Part shown: piece after piece, positions 3,289 to 55,718 of the stretch
Position numbering within the stretch: position 1 is the stretch's first letter
Layout of the letters: every line of letters begins with the position of its first letter
Source: Fidelibacterota bacterium
GTDB lineage: Bacteria; Fidelibacterota; UBA8477; JABMPR01
Reading direction: 5' to 3'
Assembly (NCBI GenBank): GCA_016844955.1
Contig: JAERTH010000083.1
Span: 15,712-79,711, forward strand
DNA: 64,000 nt
The notes under the pieces: model-generated
Database searches by the model: none
What the model saw: only the letters and a program-made list of their open reading frames with translations
Told to the model about the DNA's origin: nothing
Position numbers and translations under genes: made by a program

Positions 3289-3347
3289 GTATTCTCCTCG
3301 GGAGGGTACTATTATTGGTAAAAATCTTTAAGACTAATACAATATTG

Positions 3348-3364: not shown

Positions 3365-3422
3365 TCACATAGCCTGGCTTTATGAGCAGGTGCAAAACGA
3401 AAATATTTGTCCCCAAAACCTG

Positions 3423-3444
3423 GGCAAACTGAAACTCATTTGCC
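3423..3444. promoter_or_regulatory. Inverted repeat GGCAAA-N10-TTTGCC, possible enhancer (UAS) for the sigma-54 promoter
   Basis: 6-bp perfect arms (3423-3428 / 3439-3444). The centre is about 95 bp upstream of the predicted TSS of the GH3 promoter, a typical EBP-site distance. Confidence 0.25.
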
Positions 3445-3669
3445 ATGATTGATATCTGCTATATGAATCTATAGTGCTGCAGTAAAGACAACATAACCAA
3501 CAGCTAAGCTGATGAGCAGGATTGTTGAAATGGATGGTGAAATCCAAAAGTGGGAAGGTGATTGCCCTGAAAAAGTAAATTCAAGACCAATTGCTGCTGC
3601 GATATTTTGATATGTGAGAATATACAGCTTGTATTGTTTTGATATAAAAATTATTATCATTTCAATAAT

Positions 3670-6503: not shown

Positions 6504-6506
6504 CAC

Positions 6507-7952: not shown

Positions 7953-8089
7953 ATTAGAATCGTGTGAGGAATAGTTATTATAATAATAAGAAAATTATTC
8001 CAATAATAACGTGAATCACCAAATTTTGTGACCATCGCCAACTTCAACAGCCAATCCAGCAAATCCACTCTAAGAAAATATTTTAAGAT

Positions 8090-8133
8090 TTACAAATTGT
8101 AAGTCACTGTATTACAATAAGTAACAGTTGTAT
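8090..8133. promoter_or_regulatory. Cluster of TTACAA/TTGTAA inverted half-sites (candidate regulator/EBP binding sites)
   Basis: TTACAA-a-TTGTAA (8090-8102). TTGTAA-N9-TTACAA (8097-8117), extendable to ATTGTAA/TTACAAT. TTACAA-N10-TTGTAT (8112-8133). Located 145-190 bp upstream of the SSF start codon. Confidence 0.25.
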
Positions 8134-8175
8134 GCGTTAATGTCTGATCTTACTCAGATAAAAAAAAAGCATCCA

Positions 8176-8201
8176 TGGACTATATTCGGCACAAAGTGGT
8201 C
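8176..8201 (+). promoter_or_regulatory. Weak sigma-54-like -24/-12 candidates upstream of the SSF transporter operon
   Basis: TGGACT-ATATT-CGGCA (8176-8191) has GG-N10-GC spacing correct but 5 mismatches in flanking consensus positions. It overlaps cGGCAC-AAAGT-GGTC (8187-8201), which has a good -24 element but no GC at -12. Neither candidate is convincing alone. Confidence 0.2.
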
Positions 8202-8278
8202 TGGTAATTGAACCTGAGTACTTCGCAATTTATGAAAATATTTATTAATACGTATCGTTTACTGAACAAGGATCATTC

Positions 8279-34762: not shown

Positions 34763-35091
34763 AATTCAATGTATAAACCACGCTGGCCCCAGAGGGATCC
34801 CCTTGATGACAATCAAATTGTTGTCGTCCGGGAGCCTTTCTATAACTTCCTATCTTGTAATTAGTTGCTAATAGTTTAATATTATCAATTAAAGAAATTC
34901 AGTCGTTACCCGATCTTAAGATATGAATCTTAAAATCGGTGGGAGTGGGGAAACACTATATCAATTCAGAATCAATCAGGTGGGTATTGTCCTATAGTAT
35001 TGCAGGCGTGGAATGCAGTCTCAATGGCGGGCTATGCTCACTCAAATCTATCAGCATTTAATTATCACCCGAAACTTTGGAGGAATTCACA

Positions 35092-36465
35092 ATGAAACGA
35101 ACAGCTCTAGTAATTAGCCTTTTAGTAGTAGCTCTGGTCCTGAGCACCACTGCCCAGACTATCAGCACCCAGGGTGTCCTCAGGGATAGTGATGGACATT
35201 CCGTAGAGGATGGTGACTATACCATGACCTTTTCCATCTACGGAGCTGAAACAGGTGGAACCCTCCTGTGGGGTCCAGGAACTCAAACCGTTACTGTAGA
35301 GAATGGCATCTATCATGTCGTTCTAGGTGAAGATTCACCCATAACCTCCTTTAATTCGGATGGTAGCAATTATTTGGAGATTTCTGTTGAAAATGAGACC
35401 ATGACACCGCGTCTGCGTCTGAATGTTTCACCTTACGAGCTATCTGAATTATCAGGGTCAAGTAATACCGTACCAGGGAGTGGCAATGTTGGTATCGGAA
35501 CCACCAATCCTCAAGCCAAGCTCAGTATTGTGGCTCCTGGTGACAATGTAGATTTGCTCCATTTTGATGAAAATTCAGATTCGGAAAAAGAATTTAGTTT
35601 CCAGGGGATGTTCAGCCCTGCTGGTGGTGCTAATGGTCTGAAGTTAAGATCGCAGTGGGTGGATAAGATCATGTTCTGGCGCGGAGATGGAAATGTCGGT
35701 ATTGGCACCCAGGATCCTGCCGCTAAGTTGCATGTTGAAGGAACGATATACTCCCCCAATCAATTCTCCACACGAACCACCAATATTGGTCAGTCCATGG
35801 AAAAGGGTACTTCGGCTCGAACAACCCTACGCTTTGACTCAGATAGCTATCGTATCTATGCCGGTGGTACAGGCGGTGTTGGCTCTGTTTTGACTGCTTT
35901 AGAGTCTGGAAAAGTTGGAATAGGTACTACTACTCCGGATCAGAAGTTGGTCGTTAATGGTGGCTCAGATGTAACCGTTTCAAGTGGTGCATACATCCAA
36001 ACAGGATTAACCAGCGGATCAAATATCGGGATTGATGACAACGAGATCATGGCACGTAACAATGGCTCAACCTCGACGCTGTATTTAAACACAGAGGGTG
36101 GAACCGTTAATGTCGGGGGGGATGCCCAATTCGAGTCCGAGATTGAGGTCCAGCATGGTAGCAGTTTTACCAAACCTTTTCAATTCGTACGCTACAGCGG
36201 AAGTGGTGAAAATTGTACTATTGCAACCACCTATAGCGAAGATGACTGGATTGCTGCTGTGGTTGGTTTTGATGCCGGATCTGGTGATATCGATGAAGGG
36301 GGAACTGAGGATCTGTGGCAGATAAATTGTGCTGTTGCCTCAGATGGCAATTGGGAAATCTTCTGTGATGCACCCACCCATAACAATTATCCAGATTGGC
36401 AAATATACGTAATGTTTGTCAGTACAAAACTTGGATCAGCCACCACTGGTTACAAATCTCACTGA
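35092..36465 (+). CDS. Tail-fibre-like secreted protein, paralogue 1 (cassette 1 small partner)
   Basis: The track ORF starts at TTG 35077, which contains the RBS GGAGGA, so ATG 35092 is preferred. Signal peptide present. Conserved N-domain 'QGVLRDSDGHSVEDGDYTMTFSIY..ETGGTLLW'. Three 'GNVGIGTxxPxxKL' repeats. Unique Cys-containing C-terminal globular region. No T9SS CTD. Confidence 0.65.
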   Translation: MKRTALVISLLVVALVLSTTAQTISTQGVLRDSDGHSVEDGDYTMTFSIYGAETGGTLLWGPGTQTVTVENGIYHVVLGEDSPITSFNSDGSNYLEISVENETMTPRLRLNVSPYELSELSGSSNTVPGSGNVGIGTTNPQAKLSIVAPGDNVDLLHFDENSDSEKEFSFQGMFSPAGGANGLKLRSQWVDKIMFWRGDGNVGIGTQDPAAKLHVEGTIYSPNQFSTRTTNIGQSMEKGTSARTTLRFDSDSYRIYAGGTGGVGSVLTALESGKVGIGTTTPDQKLVVNGGSDVTVSSGAYIQTGLTSGSNIGIDDNEIMARNNGSTSTLYLNTEGGTVNVGGDAQFESEIEVQHGSSFTKPFQFVRYSGSGENCTIATTYSEDDWIAAVVGFDAGSGDIDEGGTEDLWQINCAVASDGNWEIFCDAPTHNNYPDWQIYVMFVSTKLGSATTGYKSH

Positions 36466-36529: not shown

Positions 36530-39500
36530 ATGACGGATAAAATGAGATTAAAGAGCAAGGTTCTGCCTGGAGTGTTTACTACGATGATGTTTCTCGTGGT
36601 AGCATTAACCTGGGCACAGACCAGCTCTTCTGAATATCAGATTACTCAACACAGTGATGTCCATGGGGGACAGGCCGTGTTGACCAACACAATTAATAAT
36701 CCCGCAGGACCAGCCAGCATGACCATAACTGCTGGACAGGTTGTGGTCGGGAAAGCGGAGGCTCCCCACTTTTCAACAGATCTGGGATTGTGGAGTTTTT
36801 ACATCAAAGAACCTGATGCACCACTCGTGAATGCATCTGATGGAGAAAGTGAGCATCCCGCATACATCACCATATCGGCAGTTCAGGACGTTCTGAGTCC
36901 ACCTGCCACCGGTGAAATATCGGATGCCTCGGATTTTCCAGCTGGAAATTGGGTCCTGACCAGGGATGGTGTCTGGAAAGCCAACATCCCCGTTGAAGAC
37001 CCTGCGTTTAATGATGACCAGAGTATTTACCCCGGTCAGCTCTATAACTATGGAGTGACTGTGAGTAATAAATTTGGTGCCAGCCTGGAAGGCTTTGATG
37101 CTGGATTTACCCTGCCCAATGGTAAAATTGCCGGGCGGGTATTTACTCCAGGTCCAACTCCAGGGGCTCCCTGGAATCCAGCCGGAAATCCGGTGGCTGA
37201 TGTAGAAGTATCCCTGTCACCCATACGTGGAAAATCTGCCCGCCTGGATGGGGAGAATGATTTCATTGGGATAGATGGTGACTACGAGGTAGAAATCGAC
37301 CAATCCTATTCAGTAGAATTATGGATCAACATTGATGCAACTCCTCAGTTGAGCACAATCGCTGATTGGGGTGAGAGACTCCAGGTTTACCATGATAACA
37401 CAGACCTAACTGCAAATGTTGGAGGTGTTGAAGTAAGCGTTGCGTTACCATCACAACAGAATTGGCATCATCTGGCTTGCGTTCTGGATACCAACGAGAT
37501 CATCCTGTATCTGGATGGTGATTCGGTAAAATCAGCCGCTGTAGCTCTCATGCCTGAAAGCGCAGATCTCCGGTTTGGTAAGAACCGAACCCTGGGACAG
37601 TTTTTTGATGGCTGGCTGGATGATATCCGTGTCTGGAAAACTGCCCGCAGCAAAGATGAAATTTCTAAAAATAAGGATCGAGCGCTCTTTGGTGATGAGG
37701 CCGGACTCATTGGGTATTGGAAATTTGATGAAGGGGTGAATGATATCTCTTATGATGCAACAGCTCCCAGAGAGTTGGCATCGCTGGAAGGGGCCGTATG
37801 GAGCTCGGAGATACCTGCTGTACGCCTATCGGCGTTCACGGATGTTCATGGCTTTTACGAAATCAGAAATGTCTGGTATGATGCCTCTGATGACAATGGC
37901 ACGACCTACACGGTTACACCTTTCAAGAAAAATCACGATTTTTTCTCACCGAACAACTCAGAAGCAACCATCAGTCGCAACAGTCCTGAAGCGCCGGAAG
38001 TTAAATTTATCGATGAATCTTTATTCACGGTAAGTGGATACCTGGTTTATGATGGAACCAATTGTCCGGTTGTGCATGCCGAGATTCTGGCCGATTCAAT
38101 GAGTACTCGCCCAGAGACTTTCACCGATGCATATGGTAAGTTCACGCTTGATTTTGAGCCCAATGATGGTGCTGCATTAACCGTCCGATTTGGTGGCAAT
38201 TTTGTCTACGATACCACGACTTATGAGGGTTCTGATGATATCGATATAGACACATCCTATGTGGGAGCTCATACCTTCCACCTAGACGGTGTTGAGCAAA
38301 GCTATATTGTTGAAAACATCGAGGCAGATATTGCTGATGCCGATTTCATGGATGTTCATACGAAGTCCATCTTTTTGAATATTGGTGGTGGAACTTGCAT
38401 GTTTCCCATTGGTGATGCTTCAGTGGACCTCAGGGTAGCAGGGCAGGGAGAAGGGTTTTGTTATGAGGTAGATGACATCTCAGTAATTACGGGTGATGGA
38501 TACCAGGAGATCGATGGCTTACCACCCCTGTCCTACGAAATGATTGTGACACATACCAATCCGGATATTGAATTTGATCCAATGCAGTTGAGTCTTTACG
38601 ATTCAAGTCGGCATGTGGAATACATGTATAATTCAGACCTGCAGTTGACGTTTTCAGACTTCCCCTGGGGCGAAGACTGCGCTGTGATAGCTCAGCATGT
38701 AGCAGACAGTTTGAAAGCAACTGTATATGAGGAGTACGGTGGCTATGATGGTATTGATGCCAATCGATGTCCCATAAAAATCTTCGATGTTGAAATATTG
38801 GATGATTGGAGTGGAATTTATACCGAACGCGAACCTTTTGGATCAGATAATGGTGAGTTCTGGTACCATTTTCAGGCCGGAAATCCTAATATTCTGGGTG
38901 GGGGAGAACATCCCTATCAAAAACGCCTGCAAATTGTCGTCATCGATGAACTTGGACGCTATGCCTCGGATGATGTCTGGGCCATAATCGAAGGTCGCAC
39001 CGCTACTGACGGTACCGACTTCGCGTCCATGCCTGCCAGAACCTCTGAACTTCCTTTATTTGTCCTGCGTGACCCACCGGGAGATGAGAGTTACTCGTTC
39101 CTCTCAGAGGACCAAACTATCTGTAGAACCATTGGTCTGGAGATCGAGGATGAAGAGGCTGATGATAATTACACCACTGTGAGTCTGGGAGCGGATTTTG
39201 GCCTGGAGACTGGTGTTTCGTCGCCCTTTGGGAGTCTGTTGTGGTCCAGTGAGTTGGATGCCACGCTGGATTTCAATCCCACATGGGGTGGATACCAGAC
39301 AGATCTGTCACTGGAAGAAACAGAGGTGTGTATCACAACCTCAGAAATTTTTTCCACTGACGATGGAGGTCTGATTGTAGGGGGGGAGGGTGATGTGTAT
39401 GTCGGCGCGACGCTCAACCTGACTTATAGTCGTATTATGGATTTATATGTTGAGGACTGTGAAGTGGTGATTGACACCAGTCATGGGATCAATGACATGG

Positions 39501-42500
39501 ATGGATTTCATTCCTTCTATGTATATTCCGATTATCACATTCGCTACACGCTGATTCCTGACCTTATTGAACTCAGGAACCATGCTGAGCCAGAGGACTC
39601 CACACGCTTTGACCAGTCTATTACGTACTGGACAACCCTGCTTGAAACCAATGAGGCTGCCAAGGCCAGTGCAGTCCCCACCAATGCTGAATCCAATTCG
39701 GGTGAAGCACTGACCAACATCTCCTTTGATGCGTTGGCCAATTATGAGTATTCAACCACCACAGACAGTGCTGTTACCAATCAGACTGCAGTTACCATAT
39801 CTACCTATGATGCATTTGGAATGGATATTGGAGTCACCTGGAGTGGGATCGGCGTAGTCGGTGGATTCAATGATACCGATACAGAAACCGAAACCAATGA
39901 TACAACGGATGTGGCGAGTTATAGTCGGACTGTTGGCTTTTTCCTCAGTGATGATGATCCAGGTGATGCCTTTACTGTGGATGTCAAACGTGATACAGTC
40001 TGGGGAATGCCCGTGTTTGATCTGGTGGCCGGTCAAACCTCCAACCCGTGGGAAGCTGGCACCTTCAAACGCCAATGGTGCTCCATCGATGTGGATCCCG
40101 CATCTTCATTGGATAATGAACCGGATGAGGATGCCATACTAAACCTGACCCTGGGTAATTTGAGTGAAACTGGCGAGACGTGGACCTATGCTCTTGCAGC
40201 CTGGAACGAAACCAATCCAGACGGAGCCATCATACGTGTTAACGGGACGCCCATCACTGGAACCGATCTTATTTTCGAGATCGAAGCCGGAACCAGCTCC
40301 ATGGCAACCCTGGTCATCGAACGTGGGCCGGAGGCCTACCATTACGAGGGGTTGACGCTTGAATTTGCACCGCCTGGTGAGGTGGAGATTGCCGATGCCC
40401 TGGGTCGTGATCCTCAGAATTCGGCCACCACTGAATTCGATGTCCATTTTATTGCTCCTTGTTCAGAAGTATCGCTCACAACCCCTGAAGCAGATGGCTG
40501 GGTCATCAATCAAGCCAATGCTGATTCAGCTGGATCAGATAGCCTGCAGATTGTGTTTGCAGGTTATGACCGCACTGATACCGAGCTGGAGGATATTGTC
40601 CTTGAATATTCACGTCTAAATGAAGAGACCTGGTTCAATGGGATCGTGTTGGAGGGGATTGATACGCTGGAACAGGATTTTTGGACCATGTACTGGAATA
40701 CTACTGGAGTGTCTGAAGGCACCTATATGATTCGCGCACATGCGGGTTGCCGATTACGAGATAGCTTTTCCGAAACACGCATCGGTATCATTGATCGAAC
40801 CTCGCCCCAGATTCTGGGGGTACCTGCTCCTGTTGACCATGTTCTGAATGGAAATGATCAGATCATTCTGGCCATGACTGAATCAATTGATTGTGAACAG
40901 GTTTATCCCAATACAGGTGAACTGTTTTTCGCCCATACGGGTGAGGCTATCGCTGCTGAGGTTACTTGTAATGACAATGAGATTATCATTACACCAGCAG
41001 CATCCGTCTCCAACAGGGAGATCGAGAATCAGTTGCTCAGAGCCCAGGTGCAGTTTGTAAGGGATATGGTTGGTAATCCATTGTGGGATGTCACAGGAGA
41101 GGTCCTGGATACAGTAGCCTGGGAGTTTACAGTCGATCGCAATCCATTGCATTGGAATGTACCTGCCCACGATCAGATCGCCTATCTGGGTGAGGAAACC
41201 ATCATTCCCATCACGTTGAATAATAATGGCGCTGATGCAGCTTACTTCGAATTTGGAAATCTATTCCCATTGCCGGAGTGGGTGGTTGCTGAACCAGCTT
41301 ATGGTGAGGTGAATTCAGGTGGCAGTATGACAGTCTATCTCACCCTGGATCCTTATTTGAATCTCGGGGAGTATGATGCCCGCATCTTTGCGGAAACCCC
41401 TCTGGGGGATGAACCTCTGGATTTGACGGTTCATGCCATTTGTCGGCCACCAGAGTGGACCGTTGATGCAAGTCAGTTTCAGCATAACATGACCATCACC
41501 AGCCAACTCAGCATTCAAGGTGACGCCTCAATCGATGTTTATGATCGTGTGGGTGCCTTTGTTGATGGTGAGTGTCGGGGAGTGGCAGATGTTGAACACC
41601 TGGAGTCCACTGATTCAGTTGGTGTGGATTCCCTGGGTAACGCCATCTACGAAACCACGCATTTCTACCGCACATTTCTCACTGCATATAGCCCGGAGCC
41701 AGTAGGCGAAACGTTGGAGTTCCGCATCTGGGATGCTTCGGACTGTGAAGAATTGTGGGAAATCCAGCAACCCATTCCCTTCATGGCCAATACCATACAG
41801 GGTAGCCTGGATGATCCCTTCGTGTTGAATGCATCGGGGGCCATCGCCCAGCATATCGATCTATCGCAGGGGTGGACCTGGTTCAGTTTCAATCTCCAAT
41901 ATGGAGAGATGAACTTCAATGATGTCTTTGAGTTGTTAGGAGCATCAACCGGTGATCGCATTATCGCTGCTGATACATCGGCCTATGCCCAGTACTCTGA
42001 GAGCACTGGATGGGTTGGTCCACTCACCAGTCTGCCTGTCACCAATGTGGATATGTATCAGGCCGACATGCTGGAAGCAGCCAGCTTCCCCTTTGTGGGT
42101 TTTGTCATTGATCCGGATATCACCTCTATTGAGATGGAATCAGGTTGGAATCGCATCAGCTACACCCCCCAGGTGAATATGGAAACAGTTGAAGCCCTGT
42201 CAGGGATAACTCCATCCCCCGAGGACCAGATCAAGAGCCAGTACGGCTTCGCACAGTATGATGCCACCTATGGCTGGTATGGATCATTGGACTATCTGGA
42301 ACCAGGTGTGGGTTACATGATGCATCTGGCCCAGGCCGATACGCTGATCTATCCATCTGGAGTTGGCAGGTCCTCAGATCCTCTTTATGAAGAGGATCTA
42401 CCTGAGCAAGAACTGCGAGTTGATTGTCCCTGGACTGTCGATGAGAATCACTACCTGGACAATATGACTATCACAGCTCTATTGGAAAGTGATACACTGG

Positions 42501-43066
42501 GTCTTAATAATCCAGACGATGCCGTCGCTGCTTTTGTGGGTGATGCGTGTCGCGGTGTAGCCCGACCAGTCTATGTCCCGGAAATTGAATCTTATCGCAT
42601 TTATATCATGATTTATGGTGATCAGAGTGAGCAGATCAATTTCAGAATTTGGCAGGCGGAGGGTGATCTTACCTATCAGAGTGGAACTAGCTTTGACTTT
42701 CAGGCAGATCAACGCCTGGGTGGTCTGGTTGACCCCATCATGATTACAAGAACTCCACTGGGGATAGGGGACAAGGGCTATATACCAGAAGTCTTCAGTC
42801 TCAGCCAGAACTATCCAAACCCATTCAATCCGGTTACAACCATGGGATTTGGATTGCCTGAGGACGGTCACGTGAGTATTCGCATCTATAATATCCGTGG
42901 TCAGCAGATACGGACTTTGCTGGATGAAGACCTCACAGCCGGCTATCGTTTTGTCATCTGGAACAGTCAGAATGATGTTGGACACAAGGTGCCATCAGGT
43001 ATTTACCTCACTGTTATGGAGAGTGGTTCTTTCCGTGAGGTAAAAAAGATGGTGATGCTGAAATAG
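36530..43066 (+). CDS. Giant (2178 aa) multidomain LamG-containing T9SS cargo protein, paralogue 1
   Basis: Signal peptide. FN3-like 'PDAPLVNASDGE...YNYGVTVSN'. CarboxypepD_reg-like 'NGKIAGRVFTP'. LamG/ConA-like '...NWHHLACV...LYLDGD...FDGWLDDIRVWKTARS...GYWKFDEG'. Unassigned core beginning 'LPLFVLRDPPGDESYSF'. Big_5/SbsA-like 'IIDRTSPQILGVPAPVD'. Two 'WTVD...CRGVA...FRIW' modules. CTD 'QNYPNPFNPVTT...GIYLTVMESGSFREVKKMVMLK'. Confidence 0.85.
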   Translation: MTDKMRLKSKVLPGVFTTMMFLVVALTWAQTSSSEYQITQHSDVHGGQAVLTNTINNPAGPASMTITAGQVVVGKAEAPHFSTDLGLWSFYIKEPDAPLVNASDGESEHPAYITISAVQDVLSPPATGEISDASDFPAGNWVLTRDGVWKANIPVEDPAFNDDQSIYPGQLYNYGVTVSNKFGASLEGFDAGFTLPNGKIAGRVFTPGPTPGAPWNPAGNPVADVEVSLSPIRGKSARLDGENDFIGIDGDYEVEIDQSYSVELWINIDATPQLSTIADWGERLQVYHDNTDLTANVGGVEVSVALPSQQNWHHLACVLDTNEIILYLDGDSVKSAAVALMPESADLRFGKNRTLGQFFDGWLDDIRVWKTARSKDEISKNKDRALFGDEAGLIGYWKFDEGVNDISYDATAPRELASLEGAVWSSEIPAVRLSAFTDVHGFYEIRNVWYDASDDNGTTYTVTPFKKNHDFFSPNNSEATISRNSPEAPEVKFIDESLFTVSGYLVYDGTNCPVVHAEILADSMSTRPETFTDAYGKFTLDFEPNDGAALTVRFGGNFVYDTTTYEGSDDIDIDTSYVGAHTFHLDGVEQSYIVENIEADIADADFMDVHTKSIFLNIGGGTCMFPIGDASVDLRVAGQGEGFCYEVDDISVITGDGYQEIDGLPPLSYEMIVTHTNPDIEFDPMQLSLYDSSRHVEYMYNSDLQLTFSDFPWGEDCAVIAQHVADSLKATVYEEYGGYDGIDANRCPIKIFDVEILDDWSGIYTEREPFGSDNGEFWYHFQAGNPNILGGGEHPYQKRLQIVVIDELGRYASDDVWAIIEGRTATDGTDFASMPARTSELPLFVLRDPPGDESYSFLSEDQTICRTIGLEIEDEEADDNYTTVSLGADFGLETGVSSPFGSLLWSSELDATLDFNPTWGGYQTDLSLEETEVCITTSEIFSTDDGGLIVGGEGDVYVGATLNLTYSRIMDLYVEDCEVVIDTSHGINDMDGFHSFYVYSDYHIRYTLIPDLIELRNHAEPEDSTRFDQSITYWTTLLETNEAAKASAVPTNAESNSGEALTNISFDALANYEYSTTTDSAVTNQTAVTISTYDAFGMDIGVTWSGIGVVGGFNDTDTETETNDTTDVASYSRTVGFFLSDDDPGDAFTVDVKRDTVWGMPVFDLVAGQTSNPWEAGTFKRQWCSIDVDPASSLDNEPDEDAILNLTLGNLSETGETWTYALAAWNETNPDGAIIRVNGTPITGTDLIFEIEAGTSSMATLVIERGPEAYHYEGLTLEFAPPGEVEIADALGRDPQNSATTEFDVHFIAPCSEVSLTTPEADGWVINQANADSAGSDSLQIVFAGYDRTDTELEDIVLEYSRLNEETWFNGIVLEGIDTLEQDFWTMYWNTTGVSEGTYMIRAHAGCRLRDSFSETRIGIIDRTSPQILGVPAPVDHVLNGNDQIILAMTESIDCEQVYPNTGELFFAHTGEAIAAEVTCNDNEIIITPAASVSNREIENQLLRAQVQFVRDMVGNPLWDVTGEVLDTVAWEFTVDRNPLHWNVPAHDQIAYLGEETIIPITLNNNGADAAYFEFGNLFPLPEWVVAEPAYGEVNSGGSMTVYLTLDPYLNLGEYDARIFAETPLGDEPLDLTVHAICRPPEWTVDASQFQHNMTITSQLSIQGDASIDVYDRVGAFVDGECRGVADVEHLESTDSVGVDSLGNAIYETTHFYRTFLTAYSPEPVGETLEFRIWDASDCEELWEIQQPIPFMANTIQGSLDDPFVLNASGAIAQHIDLSQGWTWFSFNLQYGEMNFNDVFELLGASTGDRIIAADTSAYAQYSESTGWVGPLTSLPVTNVDMYQADMLEAASFPFVGFVIDPDITSIEMESGWNRISYTPQVNMETVEALSGITPSPEDQIKSQYGFAQYDATYGWYGSLDYLEPGVGYMMHLAQADTLIYPSGVGRSSDPLYEEDLPEQELRVDCPWTVDENHYLDNMTITALLESDTLGLNNPDDAVAAFVGDACRGVARPVYVPEIESYRIYIMIYGDQSEQINFRIWQAEGDLTYQSGTSFDFQADQRLGGLVDPIMITRTPLGIGDKGYIPEVFSLSQNYPNPFNPVTTMGFGLPEDGHVSIRIYNIRGQQIRTLLDEDLTAGYRFVIWNSQNDVGHKVPSGIYLTVMESGSFREVKKMVMLK

Positions 43067-47779: not shown

Positions 47780-49087
47780 ATGTATCGTTCAAGTTGTAAA
47801 GTGATTGTAGTGTTTTTGTTTATTGTTTCAAGTCTGTTGGGCCAAAATCTTAGCATGCAAGGGGTTGCTCGAGACAATTCTGGACAATCCCTGCCTGATG
47901 GTTCTTATAGTTTTACTTTTCGTCTGTATACAACAGAAACAGGTGGGACCGCAGAATGGACAGAGAATCAGAATCTGGATGTTTTGAATGGAGTTTTTAG
48001 TACTGTCCTGGGTGAGATTATTGATGGAGAAAGCAGTATGGTCGATCTCGATTTCAATGATGAGTATTGGCTAAGTATCGAGATTGAAGGGAATGGACAG
48101 CTGGAGCCCCGCACCAAGTTGATCCTGTCACCTTATGCTATTATGGCAGGGCTTTCAGGAACGACGAATGTGGTACCCGAGTCTGGTAATGTTGGTATTG
48201 GGACTGACACTCCCGCGGAATTGCTCCACGTTAAAGGGGCAACCCTCGTGGAAGTAAATTCTGTTGAAACGGATATCAGTACTCTTCCGGGGCTGACCAT
48301 CGCTAACATGGCACGTTCAGGTGGAAATCAGATCTCCGGTAATCGCAGTAAACTGGGTTTCAAGCAATGGATGTCCTGGGATGATTACGTAGAAGCCGGT
48401 GCCATCGTCACAGGAAACAATACCAATAATTACAATCTTGGATACATGGCATTTCATACCAACAATGAGCATGCTGGCGGACTGCTTGAAAGGATGAGAA
48501 TCGACTGGAACGGGAATGTAGGCATCGGGACCAGTAGTCCAGAATATCCCCTTCATATTGCAAGACCCAACGCTTCACTGCGGCTCACCATGGAACGAAC
48601 AGACAACACACATGAAGCTTTTCTTCAGTTTCGTACTGGAGGTGTAAACAAGGCTCTTTTTGGGTTCGATAATGACATGAACGATCTCAGTATCTATACC
48701 TATGACTATGGTCGAGTGATCACCTTTGAGAGTGCCACGGGTGAAGTGGGTATCGGTGATGCAACCCCGGATGCCAAGCTGGATGTTGCAGGCTCACTGG
48801 ATATAGATTCATGGAAAACACAGGATCTTTCTGCCAATGGTTATGTGAAGATGGGTGGACTCATCATGCAGTGGGGTGTATTTGAGTGTACTCTGGATGA
48901 CACACAGACTGAAAGTTTTCCAATTGCCTTCCCCAATGCCTGTTTCGGTGTTTATTCAAACCGCAAGGAATCAAATGTGGAATCGCCCATCACTGTAAAC
49001 TCATGGAGTACGACAAGTTTCACTGTTAACAGAGATGATGGCATTGGTGGGTCTGAGACAGTCAATTGGTTTGCAGTCGGGCATTAA
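47780..49087 (+). CDS. Tail-fibre-like secreted protein, paralogue 2 (cassette 2 small partner) with phage-fibre-tip-like C-terminus
   Basis: 435-aa ORF with a signal peptide. N-domain 'QGVARDNSGQSLPDGSYSFTFRLY..ETGGTAEW'. Three GNVGIGT-type repeats. C-terminus 'GGLIMQWGVFECT...ESFPIAFPNACFGVYSN...TTSFTVNR' resembles the 'LIIQWG...FPIAFPN.C' tip domain of phage tail-fibre proteins. No CTD. Confidence 0.7.
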   Translation: MYRSSCKVIVVFLFIVSSLLGQNLSMQGVARDNSGQSLPDGSYSFTFRLYTTETGGTAEWTENQNLDVLNGVFSTVLGEIIDGESSMVDLDFNDEYWLSIEIEGNGQLEPRTKLILSPYAIMAGLSGTTNVVPESGNVGIGTDTPAELLHVKGATLVEVNSVETDISTLPGLTIANMARSGGNQISGNRSKLGFKQWMSWDDYVEAGAIVTGNNTNNYNLGYMAFHTNNEHAGGLLERMRIDWNGNVGIGTSSPEYPLHIARPNASLRLTMERTDNTHEAFLQFRTGGVNKALFGFDNDMNDLSIYTYDYGRVITFESATGEVGIGDATPDAKLDVAGSLDIDSWKTQDLSANGYVKMGGLIMQWGVFECTLDDTQTESFPIAFPNACFGVYSNRKESNVESPITVNSWSTTSFTVNRDDGIGGSETVNWFAVGH

Positions 49088-49142
49088 ACAACCTCTGACC
49101 AAAATTCTGATAATTCAAATCTATTTTTTTTCAGGGGATGCT

Positions 49143-52100
49143 ATGAATAAATCATTTCAAGCGGGATATCGACGTCTAAGGCAGTCTTTGATCCTGTTGC
49201 TCTTGCCCACAATTGCACTTACCCAGGATTACCAGGTTGATCTTCAGATCGTCTCCGGAGGTGCTGGTACCATGAGTGGTTCCCTTCCTTTTAATGGGGA
49301 ACTCATCTCTGGAAATGTTAGTGTGATTGTTAATCAACCGATTATGACAACCCAGACCATGTCAGGTGGAATTTATAAAATAGACCTGGGGTATTGGTCT
49401 CAAATGCTGAGAACACCCGGTACACCTATTGTTAAGGCAAGCTATGACATATATCCGGATCAGGTTAAATTGGAATGGCGCTATGATCCAAATGATCCTC
49501 CCGGAACAGAGAAACACAAGATCTATCGAAATTATAGTTCAAATCCTGCTTACATTTACGAGACACCTTCAGGAGATACCAGCTATACGGACACTGAGCT
49601 TCCAGCGGGTCATCAGTATGAATACCTGGTTCGTGGCAGCAATCGCATTCAATCTGCTACAACCTACCAGCCCCTTACCCATGCAGGGATTTCTTTTGGA
49701 AAAACCAGCAGCAATGGATCCATTGGTGGATTCATTAAAACAACTTTGAATACACCCATACCTAATGTGAGAGTCACTGCCATGAACGCGGCCGGGAGCG
49801 GTCCGGCCTGGGGGCAGTCTGTCTATTTGGATGGCCTCGAGAACTCAGTCACCATAGCTGATGCAGATGCCTTTGAATTGTTTGATGCGGCTGTTTCTGA
49901 TGCCAGAACCCTGGAAATGTGGTTTAGGCCTGAGGTATCCGGACTCCAGACGCTGATCTCCAAGGGAAGCCAATGGGAGGTGGGTATCAATGTCGATGGC
50001 CTCAACTATGTTTATTTAAACATGAATGATGAACCCATCTTCACTACGGATATCCTTCAATCCCAGGCAATCAGTATTAATGAATGGAATCATGTAGCCC
50101 TGGTGAGAGATGCTACTACCCTGCGAGTTTATATCAACGGCTGGCTGGCAACCATCAATGGCGGAGATGAGAGCGTCACTGTGTCCAATCAGATTGGGAC
50201 GAGTGCCTCTGTCTCCCTGGGCGATGGGGCAGATCATCATTTTTACCGTGGTCTCGTCGATGAGCTCCGTTGCTGGAGCGAGGCGCGCGATGAGATGTTC
50301 ATGGAACCCTATTCCGATGTAAACAACAGTGGTGCCTTTGAGGACTCATCTGATTTCTTTACCGATATCAATGGTGATGGCTTCTGGGGATCCAGTGATT
50401 CAACGGCCATCAAGCGTGACTATGACCGACTTTTCGACTACATGGTTGAAGGGATTATTGCCGAACCCACACTTGAGGCTTGCTTTCACATGGATATGGG
50501 CTCCGGACAAACTCTGATCAATTCAGTCGATATCGAGAACAATGGAAGCCTTATGGGAGGCTGGTCTACCACCCAGGCTCCGGTTTATCCCTGTGTCTAT
50601 ACAGATGCCAATGGCGGCTATACGATCAAGAACTTGAACTTTGGGAGTGGTAGGACATTTCGGGTGGTTCCCTTAAAGGCCTTTCATGAATTTGACAACC
50701 CCCATCAGGATGTCTCACTCAGCATTTATACACCAGCCAATTACACCACACATTTTAATGTGGTCAACATGATTTCCATTTCTGGTTATGTGACTTACTC
50801 AGAGGTTGGAACCAATGGATCAGCCTGTGGTGAACCCGATGTGGAAATCTGGGTTGATGGTGCCAATATGGGTGAAAGAACCGATGCAGACGGATTTTAC
50901 ATGCTCGAGGTGGAACCCGGTCGTACAGTGACGATTGTTCCCCACAAAGGAGGTCGGGAGCCGGGACATTTTTCGCCCCAGACTAAGACTTTCTTCAGTG
51001 TAGTATCTCCTCAAAGCAAGGATTTTGTAGATTCAAAACTACGTACCATACGAGGTAGTGTAACCGGTGGTGCCTGCGAATATCCTGTAGGTCCCAGTGG
51101 GATTGCTACCATCACCCTGAGTGCTGACGATGGTTGTTTCAGTTTAGACACCCCCGTTGATGCAGCGGGAAATTATGAGTTTGCCAATATTGCACCCATG
51201 GCATACTCACTTGGCGTGGGTATTGATACTGATGTTAGCAATATTCCCAATTTGCTTGAAATGAACACGTATTTCCAGAATAATGGTGCAACCATAGATC
51301 TTGAATCATCATTTGATCCAATAGATTCTGTCTGGATCACTGAAGAAGATACGGTAAAATTCAATTATCGGTCACCCATACAATTGAGGGTTGAAGGTTG
51401 GACCACCAACCCGTTGAATGATTACTACTTTGAACAGAATGGTGCTGACACACTGGATGTTTATGTTTATGAGCATTACTATGGGGGAGAGTGTCCCATG
51501 GATTCCGGTATTGTCCATATCAAGGATTGGATATCGGATCGCTATGTAGATGGTGATGCTGAAGATGGTGTTGCATTCAATTTCGCCCAGGACAGGGACG
51601 ACTATGATATTCCTAGCCTCAGGTATGGCCTCATACCGGGATTCCCTCGCTTTGAGGGTGATCACAGAAAGAATATTGAACTCATGGCTACTGATCCGTC
51701 AGGCAACATAAGTACGGATTCTGAAGCGTACCGGGCAGTTGTCCTTGGACAAAAATCGAATCAACTAAATTTTGCTACGACAGCACCTGAAATCCCTTTG
51801 TTGATTTTGAGACGCCCTCCCGGTGATGGTAGTTGGGCCAGCTTTTCTGAATCCAACACTTCATCTACCTCATTCTCCATGAGTTTGGGAAGCGCGGATA
51901 GCGAAGAAGGCAGCATTACTGCCAGCCTGGGTGTAGAAACCGAGATCAATGTTGCTCCCTGGGGAGTTGGGATGTCCTTCGATATTGATGCCCAATATGA
52001 TATAGAATCAGGTTTTTCTACTACCGCTTCACTTCAGAACAGCAGTACTATGCAATGGACAACCACAACATCAACAGAGTATACTACGGCCACCGCAGTA

Positions 52101-55100
52101 GAGCTCATGGGTGATCTGGGTACCGTTTTTGTGGGGGGAGCTATGAACTTGCTCTATGGTTCTACTAATATGCTCAGCTTGGTTGAGGATGATGGTGAAT
52201 ACGATTATCTAGTTACTCACCCCGTCATTTTCATGCCAAACGGTTTTGAAACAACCTACATCTATACGAGAGGTTATATTGAAGACTCTTTGTTGCCCGA
52301 ACTTGAGTTCCTGTCAGCAACCGACAGCAATCTGGTTAGGAGTATAGATCGCTGGAATTACATTTTGAATTACGAAGACTCGCTGCGGTGGATAACTCCT
52401 TCTGATTCTAATTTTAGCTTTAATGGCGGTGGTCAATCTATGACAGTCACCCACACTTCAGAAGGCAGTGAATCCCTGGTGTTTGAAGAAACACTTGATT
52501 TGGAATCATCATTTGCTGAAACCATGGGTCTGGAAGTATCTGGAGTTGGTGTAAGTGGAACCTCAAAAGTGACCACAAGCTTCCACCTTGGAAGCTCTGA
52601 GGAAGAAACATGGACGAATACGACCACCACCTCTTATACGCTCATGGATGATGATGGTAATGCTGAGTACGGTTACGATGATTATACGGTTGATGTCGGG
52701 AGCGATCCTGTCTATGGAACACCTGTTTTTAGGGTGATAGCCGGAAATTCATCCTGCCCTTATGAGGAATGGCGCAATGAAGTGGATTCGGTGGTTACCA
52801 CACCTCGGGATGAGCCAGGTATGAATTGGATATCACCCAGCACGGTGGTCAATGTTCCCCCCGATGATCCGGCAGAGTTGTGGATCGGTTTGAGTAATCT
52901 ATCCAGTCTTGATGAATCGAGGGTCTATTTCCTGTCCTATCTCAGCTCAAGTAATACTTATGGGGCACAGATTCTGATCAATGGTGAAGATGCTGATGAA
53001 TCCGCACCCATTCCCTTTGAATTAGAATATCTGGGGAATGATTCCGCGCTAATCACCGTTTCACGACCCGAGGGTTCGGATACCTATGAATTTGATGGTC
53101 TGATGATCAAATTCGCTCCGGAATGTGAAACCAATTACGCAGGTGTTACGCAAGGTTATACTGCATCTTTTGATGTCCGTTTCGCCAGACCCTGTACTGA
53201 GGCCGATATTTATCAACCCGTTGAAAATTGGGTCGTTAATACCATCACAGGTGATACAATGACCGTGGTTGTACAGGACTACGATCTGGGACAATCATAC
53301 TTTGATGAGCTGTTTGTGCAGTACTCAGCCATGGGAAGCGAAGACTGGTTTGCAGTGGATACTCTCATTGCAGACACGCTACGCCACTATGACTATCTGT
53401 ACAGTCAACTCAAGTGGGATGTCGGCTTATTGGAGGATGGCGTTTATGACATACGATTGATGTCGCGCTGTCTTGATGGCCTGCTGAACAATATGATGGA
53501 TCCGGTTCGAGGTGTTTTGGATCGACAAATCCCTGAAGTCCTGGGATCACCTGAACCCCTGGATGAAGTGCTGAATTTCAACGATGAGATTGCACTTAAC
53601 TTTACCGAGTCAATTAATCCGGAATCAGTGGATGCTGTGAACGTTACTCTGTATGATCTCAGCATGGATCAAACCATCACCGATTTTGATCTATCTGTTT
53701 CAGAAGAACGTCTGGTAATCAACCCAACCCTGCAAAACCGATTTATTGAGAATCATGCCTTAATGGCTACAGTGAAGGGACATGAAGATCTCTACGGGAA
53801 TCCGGGAGATTCTACATCCTGGCAATTCATTGTGGATCGTAATCCCGTGGCCTGGAGTACTTCGGATTTGGAACATATTGCCTTCCAGGGAGAGCCTGAA
53901 CCTGTTGTTCTACAGTTGAATAACACCGGGTCCACGGCACAACCCTTTTTCTTCTCAGGAACAGCAGACCAGAATGGCACACCCTTGCCTGAATGGCTCA
54001 CTGTTTCTCCCTTAGAAGGATCACTCAATCCAGGTGGCTCATTTGATATTACCATTGATGTGGCTTCCGATTTGAATAGTGGTGAATATGATGTCGTCAT
54101 CTATGCCGTAACACCAGAAGGCTATGAACCCTTTGTGCTGCATGTGGTTTCCATGTGTCCATATCCTGACTGGAGTTTCGATTTTACTGAATATGAATAC
54201 TCCATGAATGTCACAGCCAATGTGTATCAGATGTCAACTTTGTCAGATGACATCTATGACCGGGTGGCTGCCTATGTCGGTGATGAGTGTCGTGGCTGGG
54301 CACAACTGGAGTACGTCCCTGAACTGGATGATTATCAGGCCTTTATCACTGTCTTCAGTAATGAATGGAGTGGGGAAGAAGTCCAATTCCATATCTGGGA
54401 TCGCACCGAATGTTCTGAATACTGGCAGGCTGACACCAGCGTGACCTTTATTGAAGGGGAAGCCTACGGAAGTCCCATGGAGCCTATCGCCTTGAACGCC
54501 ACTGGAGAACTGGGTCAAAATATCGATCTTCACAGTGGTTTCACCTGGATGTCACTCAATCTGGATGCAGATGATATGAGTATGGCTTCGATTCTTGAAG
54601 GTATTGAAGCAACCCCTGGAGATCGCATTATCGGGCATGAAGCTTTTGCTCAATATTCTGATTCTTCCGGATGGTCTGGAACGCTTACCTCCCTTGACAA
54701 CTACTCAATGTACCAGCTTGATCTGGAAAATGCCGATGAACTCATTCATGTGGGTTTGCCAGTTCAGCCAGATATCACCAATATTGAAATCGCCTCAGGT
54801 TGGAATTGGATTTCCTATCTTCCTGTTGAGAATATCAATGTGAATCACGCCTTGTCCTCACTGCTGAATAGCACGGATGATTTGATTAAAAATCAGTCAC
54901 AGTATGCTCAATTCGTGGATGGCGTTGGCTGGTTGGGAAGCTTGAATCGCATGCACCCTGGAATGGGATACAAGTTGGAGTCCTTTGAAGGTGGTATGCT
55001 GAATTACCCCCCCAGTGAAAGTATCACCCTGGGCCGTTCAATCGCATCAAATGACCCCGTTGAATTGCCTGAGTTACCCTGGACCCTCGAGGAAATGCCT

Positions 55101-55718
55101 CATTTTCAGAATAATATGACTATTACAGCGTTGCTGGAAAGTGATACCATCGGTGTCAACAATCCTGGTGATGCTGTCGTGGCATTTGCGGGTGAAGAAG
55201 TACGTGGGATTGCCAGGCCAATCTACATCCCCGAGCTGCATGCCTATCGTGTCTTCCTTATGATTCAGGGTGATTCCGGGGAAGAAATCAGTCTGAAAAT
55301 CTGGGACTCCGAGAATGATGTCCAGTACCAGGCTACCCGGTCAATGAACTTCCAGGCGGATGCTGTGCATGGAACGCCTCTGAATCCTTATATGCTGGCC
55401 AGAGCGCCACTTGGAATCGGAGATAAGGGCTATGTGCCAGATGTGTATTCACTGGCTCAGAACTATCCCAATCCTTTCAATCCAACGACCAATATTGGAT
55501 TTGGACTACCAGAAGATACCGAAGTATCCATACAGATCTACAATCTCAGGGGGCAATTGGTTACAAATCTTATGGAAGGACCGCTGACAGCTGGTTATCG
55601 CTACATCAAATGGTCCGGTCTAAATGATAATCAGCATCGACTACCCTCAGGTGTATATCTGGTGGTCATGAATACTGAGTCATTTAGAGATGTGAAAAAG
55701 ATGGTACTGCTGAAATAA
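49143..55718 (+). CDS. Giant (2191 aa) multidomain LamG-containing T9SS cargo protein, paralogue 2
   Basis: The track ORF starts at 49035, inside the upstream gene. Met at 49143 (MNKSFQAGYRRLRQSLILLLLPTIALTQ) gives a signal peptide. Collinear with paralogue 1: FN3-like, 'NGSIGGFIKT', LamG ('WNHVALV...VYINGW...YRGLVDELRCWSEAR'), core 'IPLLILRRPPGDGSW', 'LDRQIPEVLGSPEPLD', two WTVD/CRG-type modules. The CTD has 68/107 identical residues to paralogue 1 in my by-eye alignment. Confidence 0.85.
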   Translation: MNKSFQAGYRRLRQSLILLLLPTIALTQDYQVDLQIVSGGAGTMSGSLPFNGELISGNVSVIVNQPIMTTQTMSGGIYKIDLGYWSQMLRTPGTPIVKASYDIYPDQVKLEWRYDPNDPPGTEKHKIYRNYSSNPAYIYETPSGDTSYTDTELPAGHQYEYLVRGSNRIQSATTYQPLTHAGISFGKTSSNGSIGGFIKTTLNTPIPNVRVTAMNAAGSGPAWGQSVYLDGLENSVTIADADAFELFDAAVSDARTLEMWFRPEVSGLQTLISKGSQWEVGINVDGLNYVYLNMNDEPIFTTDILQSQAISINEWNHVALVRDATTLRVYINGWLATINGGDESVTVSNQIGTSASVSLGDGADHHFYRGLVDELRCWSEARDEMFMEPYSDVNNSGAFEDSSDFFTDINGDGFWGSSDSTAIKRDYDRLFDYMVEGIIAEPTLEACFHMDMGSGQTLINSVDIENNGSLMGGWSTTQAPVYPCVYTDANGGYTIKNLNFGSGRTFRVVPLKAFHEFDNPHQDVSLSIYTPANYTTHFNVVNMISISGYVTYSEVGTNGSACGEPDVEIWVDGANMGERTDADGFYMLEVEPGRTVTIVPHKGGREPGHFSPQTKTFFSVVSPQSKDFVDSKLRTIRGSVTGGACEYPVGPSGIATITLSADDGCFSLDTPVDAAGNYEFANIAPMAYSLGVGIDTDVSNIPNLLEMNTYFQNNGATIDLESSFDPIDSVWITEEDTVKFNYRSPIQLRVEGWTTNPLNDYYFEQNGADTLDVYVYEHYYGGECPMDSGIVHIKDWISDRYVDGDAEDGVAFNFAQDRDDYDIPSLRYGLIPGFPRFEGDHRKNIELMATDPSGNISTDSEAYRAVVLGQKSNQLNFATTAPEIPLLILRRPPGDGSWASFSESNTSSTSFSMSLGSADSEEGSITASLGVETEINVAPWGVGMSFDIDAQYDIESGFSTTASLQNSSTMQWTTTTSTEYTTATAVELMGDLGTVFVGGAMNLLYGSTNMLSLVEDDGEYDYLVTHPVIFMPNGFETTYIYTRGYIEDSLLPELEFLSATDSNLVRSIDRWNYILNYEDSLRWITPSDSNFSFNGGGQSMTVTHTSEGSESLVFEETLDLESSFAETMGLEVSGVGVSGTSKVTTSFHLGSSEEETWTNTTTTSYTLMDDDGNAEYGYDDYTVDVGSDPVYGTPVFRVIAGNSSCPYEEWRNEVDSVVTTPRDEPGMNWISPSTVVNVPPDDPAELWIGLSNLSSLDESRVYFLSYLSSSNTYGAQILINGEDADESAPIPFELEYLGNDSALITVSRPEGSDTYEFDGLMIKFAPECETNYAGVTQGYTASFDVRFARPCTEADIYQPVENWVVNTITGDTMTVVVQDYDLGQSYFDELFVQYSAMGSEDWFAVDTLIADTLRHYDYLYSQLKWDVGLLEDGVYDIRLMSRCLDGLLNNMMDPVRGVLDRQIPEVLGSPEPLDEVLNFNDEIALNFTESINPESVDAVNVTLYDLSMDQTITDFDLSVSEERLVINPTLQNRFIENHALMATVKGHEDLYGNPGDSTSWQFIVDRNPVAWSTSDLEHIAFQGEPEPVVLQLNNTGSTAQPFFFSGTADQNGTPLPEWLTVSPLEGSLNPGGSFDITIDVASDLNSGEYDVVIYAVTPEGYEPFVLHVVSMCPYPDWSFDFTEYEYSMNVTANVYQMSTLSDDIYDRVAAYVGDECRGWAQLEYVPELDDYQAFITVFSNEWSGEEVQFHIWDRTECSEYWQADTSVTFIEGEAYGSPMEPIALNATGELGQNIDLHSGFTWMSLNLDADDMSMASILEGIEATPGDRIIGHEAFAQYSDSSGWSGTLTSLDNYSMYQLDLENADELIHVGLPVQPDITNIEIASGWNWISYLPVENINVNHALSSLLNSTDDLIKNQSQYAQFVDGVGWLGSLNRMHPGMGYKLESFEGGMLNYPPSESITLGRSIASNDPVELPELPWTLEEMPHFQNNMTITALLESDTIGVNNPGDAVVAFAGEEVRGIARPIYIPELHAYRVFLMIQGDSGEEISLKIWDSENDVQYQATRSMNFQADAVHGTPLNPYMLARAPLGIGDKGYVPDVYSLAQNYPNPFNPTTNIGFGLPEDTEVSIQIYNLRGQLVTNLMEGPLTAGYRYIKWSGLNDNQHRLPSGVYLVVMNTESFRDVKKMVLLK

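Follow-up and report, generated by a model that had tools for sequence, protein, structure and literature searches.

A twin-hairpin domain defines a large family of giant proteins secreted by the type IX secretion system

The stretch of Fidelibacterota DNA analysed here (64,000 nucleotides of contig JAERTH010000083.1, positions 15,712 to 79,711; referred to as the window) encodes three giant proteins, all of which share a block of some 480 residues that a preliminary description had picked out from the letters of the DNA. We find that the first ~340 residues of this block are an undescribed extracellular domain, which defines a very large family of giants secreted via a type IX secretion system (T9SS). 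As modelled by AlphaFold2, the block consists of two parts, namely the novel domain (residues 834-1179 of giant 1) and a β-sandwich behind it (~1179-1309). The predicted fold of the domain is dominated by two very long hairpins with amphipathic tips, and we tentatively read it as a module that assembles into barrels. Below, we present the conservation, structure, export and distribution of the domain, weigh this reading against its alternatives, and compare the domain with known systems.

Conservation of the block

The three giants and their shared block are located as follows.

36530-43066, + strand: giant 1 (P0001), 2178 residues, from the listing of open reading frames (ORFs) and its translation
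49035-55718, + strand: gene of giant 2 (P0002)
58701 to the window end, + strand: giant 3 (P0003), whose ORF runs past the window and has 2382 residues as a whole
Block in P0001: LRDPPGD-type motif PLFVLRDPPGDESYSF from residue 840 (39047), 'PCSE' at 1311-1314, block end at 40500
Block in P0002: LRDPPGD-type motif PLLILRRPPGDGSW from residue 921 (51795), 'PC[ST]E' at ~1387, block end at 53240
Block in P0003: LRDPPGD-type motif PLLILRDPPGDGSYSY from residue 1019 (61755), 'PC[ST]E' at ~1459, block end at 63105

The translated ORFs confirm that the block is present in all three giants, with the motifs quoted for it in the places given. The giants are paralogues that are collinear end to end at 29-30 % identity. 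To place them in a wider context we used an alignment of 82 cores, three from the window and 79 from genome loci, which span at least six phyla. It contains 21 invariant and ~70 nearly invariant columns, most of them outside the Ser/Thr-rich stretches, and because of these columns the conservation of the block is not a matter of composition. An artefact of low-complexity Ser/Thr/Gly composition could draw on two observations, the NCBIfam 'serine-rich protein' matches in 8 of the 82 members and the compositional bias of the hairpin tips. Against it stand the nature of the invariant columns, which are mostly D, P, G, W, N, F and E and lie outside the biased stretches, profile-search E-values as low as 1e-124, a body confidently predicted by AlphaFold2, and structured co-variation. 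We regard the probability of such an artefact as practically nil; low-complexity bias, which the preliminary description had named as a possible source of the conservation, is contradicted by the invariant motifs and the co-variation.

The block had also been called the best-conserved part of the proteins, which holds in part. Compared with 30 distant full-length homologues, residues 1141-1320 of giant 1, the last third of the block, form the family-wide peak of conservation (40-47 %), whereas residues 841-1140 are average (22-33 %). Between giants 1 and 2 the C-terminal 400 residues are more alike (45-58 %) than the block, which reaches 19-36 %.

Structure of the twin-hairpin domain

Two AlphaFold2 models describe the region. 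The whole-core model covers residues 780-1440 of giant 1 with the 82 aligned sequences and has a predicted local distance difference test score (pLDDT) of 75.6; it starts with the tail of a sandwich, continues with the novel region (model residues 55-400) and closes with two confident β-sandwiches (400-645). The model of the isolated domain, residues 834-1179, has a mean pLDDT of 67.8 and a predicted template modelling score of 0.65, and comprises three β-hairpins of ~20 residues per strand together with a helix-turn-helix. Strand order and packing were derived from DSSP strings and co-variation alone. The domain occurs once in each giant of the window, and its elements in giant 1 are listed together with the sandwiches that follow; strand numbers refer to the model of the isolated domain.

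39029-40066, + strand: undescribed twin-hairpin domain as found in giant 1 (P0001 834-1179)
51783-52802, + strand: twin-hairpin domain of giant 2, 26 % identical to that of giant 1 (E 4e-92 in a search of its own genome)
61743-62696, + strand: twin-hairpin domain of giant 3, 35 % identical to that of giant 1 (E 4e-115 in the same kind of search)
39047-39085, + strand: short N-terminal strand and invariant 'L[IV]LRDPPGD.S' (residues 840-852; model strand 7-13)
39092-39355, + strand: hairpin A (residues 855-942; AlphaFold2 strands 22-41 / 94-109)
39131-39313: seg1, the amphipathic extension of hairpin A (residues 868-928)
39395-39529, + strand: hairpin B with 'GDVY.G.A.N' and 'GF.TT..YS' (residues 956-1000; AlphaFold2 strands 123-142 / 145-167)
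39530-39667, + strand: helix-turn-helix (residues 1001-1046; AlphaFold2 helices 168-185 and 188-213)
39743-39946, + strand: hairpin C (residues 1072-1139; AlphaFold2 strands 239-261 / 284-306)
39785-39898: seg2, the amphipathic Gly-rich tip of hairpin C with a Ser/Thr-rich tract on either side (residues 1086-1123)
39947-40057, + strand: motif block of highest conservation, 'L.DDD.GD.FTVDV..D.VYGTPVF.L..GQSSCPWE' (residues 1140-1176; short strands 314-321 and 328-336)
40064-40801, + strand: two β-sandwiches behind the core (P0001 ~1179-1309 and 1315-1424; residues 400-645 of the whole-core model, pLDDT mostly >90)

The block noted earlier stops at 40500, where the second of these sandwiches begins.

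In the predicted structure, the strand with the DPPGD motif, hairpin B, the helix-turn-helix and the acidic DDD.GD...YGTPVF...CPWE block make up a compact body, from which the very long hairpins A and C protrude side by side as a single sheet. Several landmarks lie in the body: the DPPGD region holds the invariant columns P9, L13, P16, P17, G18, D19 and S21, the helix-turn-helix an invariant Trp (W201), and the motif block at 1140-1176, which is the family-wide conservation peak, five invariant acidic residues (invariant columns D308, D310, D313, D322, F330, G335 and E342). Confidence is high for this motif block (pLDDT 84-94) and for hairpin B (block means mostly 76-92, with one block at 62). 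Low confidence is confined to the two amphipathic tips, with pLDDT <50 for model residues 35-95 of hairpin A and 253-290 at the tip of hairpin C.

These tips follow a common design. Over the distal 15-20 residues of each arm in hairpins A and C, hydrophobic residues alternate with acidic ones or with Ser, Thr or Gly, and the turns are uncharged and Gly-rich. Column by column in the 82 sequences, seg1 shows ~8 hydrophobic positions per arm alternating with D/E/S/T/K around such a turn. In seg2 the pattern reads F.F.V-NG-V.V..I.F with Gly on the opposite face, flanked on either side by ~16 Ser/Thr/Asn/Glu residues. The alternation is kept by column across phyla though the residues themselves change. 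In 37 of 120 homologues seg1 holds the most β-amphipathic 29-residue window of the whole protein, compared with a chance of ~2 % per 50-residue bin that is our own estimate from ~45 bins rather than a computed control.

Is this arrangement reflected in the evolution of the family? Co-variation was analysed by mean-field direct coupling analysis on 331 non-redundant domain sequences with a modest effective number of sequences (Neff) of 288. Hairpin A appears as one continuous antiparallel register between profile positions 16-58 and 62-103 (z 9.1-12.4), and its first arm, A1, pairs with the second arm of hairpin C, C2, over ~40 residues including the amphipathic parts (z 8.8 and 5.9). Further ladders correspond to hairpin B (z 7.9), hairpin C (z 6.4) and the helix pair (z 6.3). 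Both the extended form of the hairpins and the pairing of A with C are supported by co-variation. Most of the couplings that link the two hairpins join polar-face positions (for example, profile pairs 52-253 and 78-243), as would fit strands that are in-plane neighbours rather than packed face to face. The strongest coupling of all, between profile positions 10 and 204, connects the DPPGD loop to helix 2. The second strongest joins two cysteines, C865 and C934 of giant 1 (39122-39124 and 39329-39331), which stand at the base of hairpin A and probably form a disulfide, as would fit an extracellular protein. Giants 2 and 3 are without both cysteines, so the paralogues differ in this probable staple.

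Export and architecture of the giants

The domain is one part of a long chain. From its N-terminus, giant 1 is composed of a signal peptide, LamG (residues 254-379; Pfam and NCBIfam), CarboxypepD_reg-like sandwiches, the twin-hairpin core, β-sandwiches, Big_5/Ig-like domains, C-terminal modules and a T9SS sorting domain. Pfam and NCBIfam recognise only LamG, CarboxypepD_reg-like, Big_5 and the sorting domain on the giants, and nothing on the block. The sorting domain (PF18962 / TIGR04183) scores above the cut-offs in giant 2 (33.4 and 31 bits) and slightly below them in giant 1 (26.5 and 22.7 bits; Por_Secre_tail at 2095-2175 with a cut-off of 27). In giant 3 the C-terminus lies beyond the window and aligns with profile positions 999-1093 of the PorU model, which are the CTD-like end of that model. 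The same genome encodes a PorU sortase (700 bits, cut-off 420) and, in an ORF of 2210 residues, an SprA N-terminal domain (121 bits). With this machinery in the genome and a sorting domain on the proteins, the giants are therefore T9SS cargo.

In giants 2 and 3 the true start probably lies downstream of that of the longest ORF. The ATG of giant 2 at 49035 overlaps the preceding fibre gene by 53 nucleotides, and a signal-peptide-like sequence runs from Met37 (49143), the likely true start; the signal peptide of giant 3 starts at Met7 (58719). Directly behind giant 3, beyond the window, follows an ORF of 2349 residues that is also T9SS cargo (contig C83 ~81567-88613; L094:7568-14614). It is without the twin-hairpin core and has at least four 'W.VD...CRG' modules, a module that giants 1 and 2 also carry close to their C-terminal ends.

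Size and distribution of the family

In a set of 1.84 billion representative proteins, a profile of the domain alone finds at least 2,748 clusters (defined at 50 % identity) at E <= 1e-3, and 1,320 at E <= 1e-30. Among the 150 matches listed, the domain is always inside large proteins of up to 7,786 residues; every complete cluster protein inspected is T9SS cargo, and the shortest complete architectures have ~1,600 residues and no LamG. A word-indexed search gave 206 relatives and a genome scan at least 554 loci. They belong to Neomarinimicrobiota/Fidelibacterota, Calditrichota, Cloacimonadota, Ignavibacteriae (Ignavibacteriota), Latescibacterota and Bacteroidota, the latter with Saprospiraceae, Lewinellaceae, Haliscomenobacteraceae, Chitinophagales and Rhodothermales, and especially the first two. 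Two carriers are cultured strains: Phaeodactylibacter luteus KCTC 42180, with three strong copies and one further, weaker match, and Neolewinella aquimaris DSM 105137, with three copies. Members also occur in metagenome-assembled genomes (MAGs) labelled outside the usual T9SS phyla, one as Halioglobus (L046; Gammaproteobacteria) and one as Thermoanaerobaculia (L061/L070; Acidobacteriota), which could reflect mis-binning or real transfer.

Throughout the family the N-terminal partners vary between LamG, TSP_3, FG-GAP and β-helix/BACON, while the core, the sandwiches behind it and the sorting domain are constant. Since the core is kept amid changing partners, this module is the constant of the family, and the block, earlier suggested to be probably the functional heart of the proteins, does contain the family-defining module. 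Among related genomes the core is found in 12 of 41, namely in 11 of 23 from the same genus and in one of 18 from the more distant Marinimicrobia sampled; the genome of the window has four copies. This variation between strains suggests gain and loss or horizontal transfer, and the patchy distribution fits accessory surface or weapon genes.

Fibre genes upstream of the giants

Each giant of the window is preceded by a gene for a fibre resembling the MAT fibres of Bdellovibrio.

35077-36465, + strand: fibre gene directly upstream of giant 1
47780-49087 and 56389-58659: fibre paralogues upstream of giants 2 and 3

A Sec signal peptide is present in all three fibres and a T9SS sorting domain in none, as judged by reading the sequences and by Pfam. 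At 52 of 79 loci from other phyla, homologues of the fibres' N-terminal domain (~150 residues) are encoded immediately before the giant, often arranged in tandem, and a MAT-like fibre gene precedes all four giant copies in the genome of the window. The fourth pair is on contig C81 (L093:809-2359 and 2384-8806) and consists of a 517-residue fibre followed by a 2141-residue giant with the core. For the MAT fibres, the surface element that binds the N-terminal domain is stated to be unknown (PMC10769870).

Many loci of Saprospiraceae and Lewinellaceae (for example, L022, L027, L032, L034, L058, L065 and L069) have, in addition, ORFs of ~1,320-1,370 residues upstream of the fibre genes. They form one single-linkage cluster present in 37 of the 79 loci, whose sole member that was read is TPR sensor-kinase-like; no counterpart was noted beside the cassettes of the window.

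Searches against known families

That no family could be assigned to the block, as stated in the preliminary description, is upheld by searches of Pfam, NCBIfam, PHROGs and PDB sequences, which gave no significant match to the core. With phmmer and profile searches against all PDB sequences nothing significant was found on it, and PHROGs, a viral structure library and tblastn against phages returned no match. The only near-significant PDB sequence match lies over hairpin C (E 0.02-0.047) and is to the C-terminal domain of Cry78Aa, an aerolysin-type, pore-forming domain (PMC9363482). Weak per-protein Pfam matches in the 82 members are to CEL_III_C (6 proteins, best E 0.0017), ETX_MTX2 (5, best E 0.51) and Aerolysin (1, E 0.0036), together with sub-threshold matches to outer-membrane barrel families; NCBIfam adds monalysin in two members (E 0.1). 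The proteins of the window themselves match none of PF03318, PF01117, PF18054 and NF033381. The Secretin model (PF00263) is without a Pfam match in the 82 members, and MACPF is absent from the 25 Pfam families listed for them, those matched by most. Tc toxin and adhesin families are found neither in the Pfam, NCBIfam and PDB hidden Markov model (HMM) results nor among the 50 Foldseek matches listed, with no Tc toxin used as a yardstick.

In structural comparisons with Foldseek, the whole-core model matches only Ig/MG/FN3 arrays (C5, ECAM; template modelling score, TM, of 0.14), which say nothing on the novel part because they arise from the flanking sandwiches. A reading as alpha-2-macroglobulin was dropped, as no thioester motif was seen on reading the sequence and the TM was negligible. 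The isolated domain gives 11 matches in the PDB at E <= 0.001, and all of them are secretin barrel protomers: GspD (8jvb, 1.8e-5), then BfpB, RcpA, InvG and PulD down to 5e-4, with Foldseek probabilities of 0.84-1.0 (PulD 0.38). Aerolysin (3g4n, E 0.048, TM 0.16) and parasporin-2 (E 0.088) follow, and no MACPF/CDC structure is among the 50 PDB matches listed.

A possible barrel-forming module or collar

What could the twin hairpins be good for? A four-stranded sheet with one hydrophobic face cannot stay exposed to water, and this face must therefore be buried; a barrel of several protomers would do so most economically. Our preferred interpretation, which we hold tentatively and at somewhat less than even chances, is that the domain as modelled is an oligomerising, barrel-forming and possibly membrane-inserting module with four strands per protomer. 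After T9SS export several copies would associate, each giving its four strands to a shared β-barrel, by analogy with secretins, the pores of MACPF/CDC and gasdermin, TolC or trimeric autotransporters. The hydrophobic belt of this barrel would lie in a membrane, either that of a target cell or the producer's own outer membrane, and the upstream trimeric MAT-like fibre, with its Sec signal and no T9SS signal, would probably dock on the assembly. In favour of this interpretation we count the long hairpins of the model and their recovery by co-variation, the conserved amphipathic pattern, the Foldseek matches to secretins, the recurrent sub-threshold matches to aerolysin-type pore formers and outer-membrane barrels, and the context, namely the T9SS parts of the genome, the conserved pair of fibre and giant, and the patchy distribution.

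The main rival is a serious one, even if we think it unlikely on balance: the hairpins could form an oligomeric collar or stalk, or a docking platform for the fibre, and bury their hydrophobic faces in protein contacts without any membrane. The position of the domain amid a chain of β-sandwich domains speaks for it, and so does the precedent of GhpA, which forms heptameric hollow stems (bioRxiv 10.1101/2024.01.29.577165). The frequent fibre gene directly upstream (52 of 79 loci), together with a surface partner stated to be unknown for the MAT fibres (PMC10769870), would suit a docking platform as well. The four arms co-vary with one another about equally strongly, as they would in a compact bundle, and the acidic face and invariant Asp cluster could, judging from the residues, bind Ca2+ for rigidity. 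On the other side, couplings between the hairpins lie chiefly on their polar face and so speak against a two-layer bundle with a hydrophobic core, the uncharged Gly-rich tips and Ser/Thr tracts resemble membrane hairpins more than protein interfaces, and the weak matches described above point to pore formers and outer-membrane barrels.

Several observations weigh against the barrel-forming interpretation. Amphipathic strands of 13 residues are common throughout these β-rich proteins in a per-sequence scan, and because they occur everywhere in the giants such a scan alone does not single out the tips; the top amphipathic windows of giants 1 and 2 fall elsewhere. The domain sits mid-protein, ~850-1000 residues from either end, which is an odd site for the head of a toxin, and a stand-alone short version was looked for and not found, the short matches inspected being truncated gene fragments. 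Closure of a barrel between protomers would show as a ladder joining seg1's second arm to seg2's first arm, two arms that cannot be neighbours within a monomer. With a z of 4.8 this ladder barely exceeds the values for next-nearest strands (4.2 and 3.2) at a Neff of 288, so that closure remains conjectural and is not used here as evidence. The likeness to secretins is also limited: Foldseek TM values of 0.13-0.21 with root-mean-square deviations (rmsd) between 19 and 33 Å mean that there is no global fold match, and the long hairpins may have inflated the 3Di scores. Profile comparisons with hhalign gave probabilities of 0.07 % for 12 secretins from related genomes (a thin target profile), 0.1 % for a single ETX_MTX2-family protein (a weak test with one sequence), and 0.3 % and 0.1 % for two Bacteroidota MACPF alignments, which reached 91 % when compared with each other as a control.

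A more far-reaching proposal, and in our view a rather unlikely one, makes the predicted twin-hairpin domain the founder of a new superfamily of β-barrel formers that assemble by themselves. They would give four strands per protomer, have no sequence relationship to secretins, MACPF/CDC, gasdermins or aerolysins, be exported by the T9SS and cooperate with the trimeric MAT-like fibre encoded upstream. In one version they would be contact-dependent devices, aimed by the fibre, that perforate the membranes of other cells. In the other they would be what has long been sought for the fibres, which have a Sec signal and no known route across the outer membrane: their anchor in that membrane or their exit pore.

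Significance

At least 2,748 protein clusters from many lineages bear the domain, to which no database gives a name. The giants that carry it rank with the largest proteins that abundant marine and wastewater bacteria secrete, and some of these bacteria are known predators. If it is true that the module builds membrane barrels, it would represent a new pore or channel architecture and point to contact-dependent attack or attachment. If it is merely a structural collar, it would still be a new oligomerisation domain deserving a Pfam entry. In either case, the conserved pairing of giant and MAT-like fibre proposes a seat for the fibre, a question left open by the work on Bdellovibrio.

Relation to known systems

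Secretins (GspD, InvG, PulD, BfpB, RcpA, PilQ, pIV) are the closest neighbours by Foldseek and share with the domain strands of ~20 residues in long hairpins combined with helices. They self-assemble into giant multi-protomer barrels, to which each protomer contributes four outer strands. Unlike them, the domain shows no sequence or profile similarity and no N0-N3 ring domains; its flanks are LamG, CarboxypepD_reg-like and Ig-like sandwiches and a T9SS sorting domain. Secretins are also periplasm-facing outer-membrane proteins, while the domain is found mid-chain in an exported T9SS cargo. True homology, in which a secreted protein would have taken over the channel domain of secretins, would account for the 11 Foldseek matches, which come from five secretion and pilus systems and extend over ~320-360 alignment columns for a query of 346 residues. 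We nevertheless consider it highly improbable given the low TM and high rmsd, the negative Pfam and hhalign results, the differing export route and the missing N0-N3 domains, and the real secretins of this genome are ordinary proteins of 430-650 residues.

The preliminary description had likened the Ser/Thr-rich stretches to the insertion hairpins of β-pore-forming toxins, as an impression. Part of it survives: the stretches that alternate make up the tips of the two very long hairpins, their pattern is kept by column across the family, and CEL_III_C, ETX_MTX2, Aerolysin, monalysin and the C-terminal domain of Cry78Aa are the sole recurring weak matches. Membership in aerolysin/ETX-MTX2 or MACPF does not follow, as all matches are sub-threshold, hhalign probabilities do not exceed 0.3 %, the domain has two hairpins per protomer instead of the one in aerolysins, and the closest folds are secretins rather than toxins. 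Beyond these matches, the resemblance to aerolysin-type toxins lies in the elongated strands, in the classic layout of hairpin C, an amphipathic hairpin between two Ser/Thr tracts, and in a lectin-type targeting domain carried by the one chain (LamG here), which many members of the family also have. A very divergent toxin of this type fused into a surface giant could thus claim sub-threshold matches from four independent models, the Cry78Aa match on hairpin C and the listing of aerolysin and parasporin-2 by Foldseek. It is improbable all the same: the matches remain under the family cut-offs and are restricted to a compositionally biased hairpin, the single-sequence hhalign comparison is negative, though weak as a test, and a second amphipathic hairpin with a central helix-turn-helix is not aerolysin topology (TM 0.16). 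Moreover, the host proteins have 1,500-7,800 residues as compared with toxins of 30-50 kDa.

With MACPF/CDC and gasdermin the domain shares two putative membrane-hairpin regions and hence four strands per protomer, a feature that is not family-specific and serves as a working analogy. The MACPF signature, (Y/W)G(T/S)H(F/Y)x6GG, is located between the two hairpin regions. A divergent MACPF/CDC-type domain was conceived from 'YGTPVF...GQ', which superficially resembles this signature, and from the order of elements, two amphipathic hairpin regions with a helix-turn-helix between them. This idea was rejected, as hhalign was negative with a working positive control, and we find it scarcely plausible: profile similarity is absent, the family is found neither among the 25 Pfam families nor among the 50 Foldseek matches listed, and the look-alike 'YGTPVF..L..GQ' stands behind the second hairpin, in the wrong place.

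TolC and the anchors of trimeric autotransporters resemble the domain in having four amphipathic strands per chain, and with a trimeric fibre as partner a 12-stranded trimer is conceivable. Their barrels, also built from four strands per protomer, are inserted from the periplasm. Neither is found in Pfam or among the Foldseek matches listed, with no search aimed at them.

Two further systems are related by context. GhpA of Aureispira is a giant type-A T9SS substrate from the same lineages (Saprospiria) that oligomerises outside the cell; its stem consists of Ig-like repeats and no twin-hairpin domain has been described for it. The PDB profile searches returned no significant chain, GhpA being covered only if present in the PDB copy used, which was unchecked. 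The likeness to the MAT fibres of Bdellovibrio concerns the partner genes, which likewise have a conserved N-terminal domain, a shaft made of repeats and tips that vary (PMC10769870), and not the block, as the giants are a different protein. By the available tests the twin-hairpin domain belongs to none of the secretin, aerolysin/ETX-MTX2 and MACPF families, and what it has in common with them is the design of long amphipathic hairpins.

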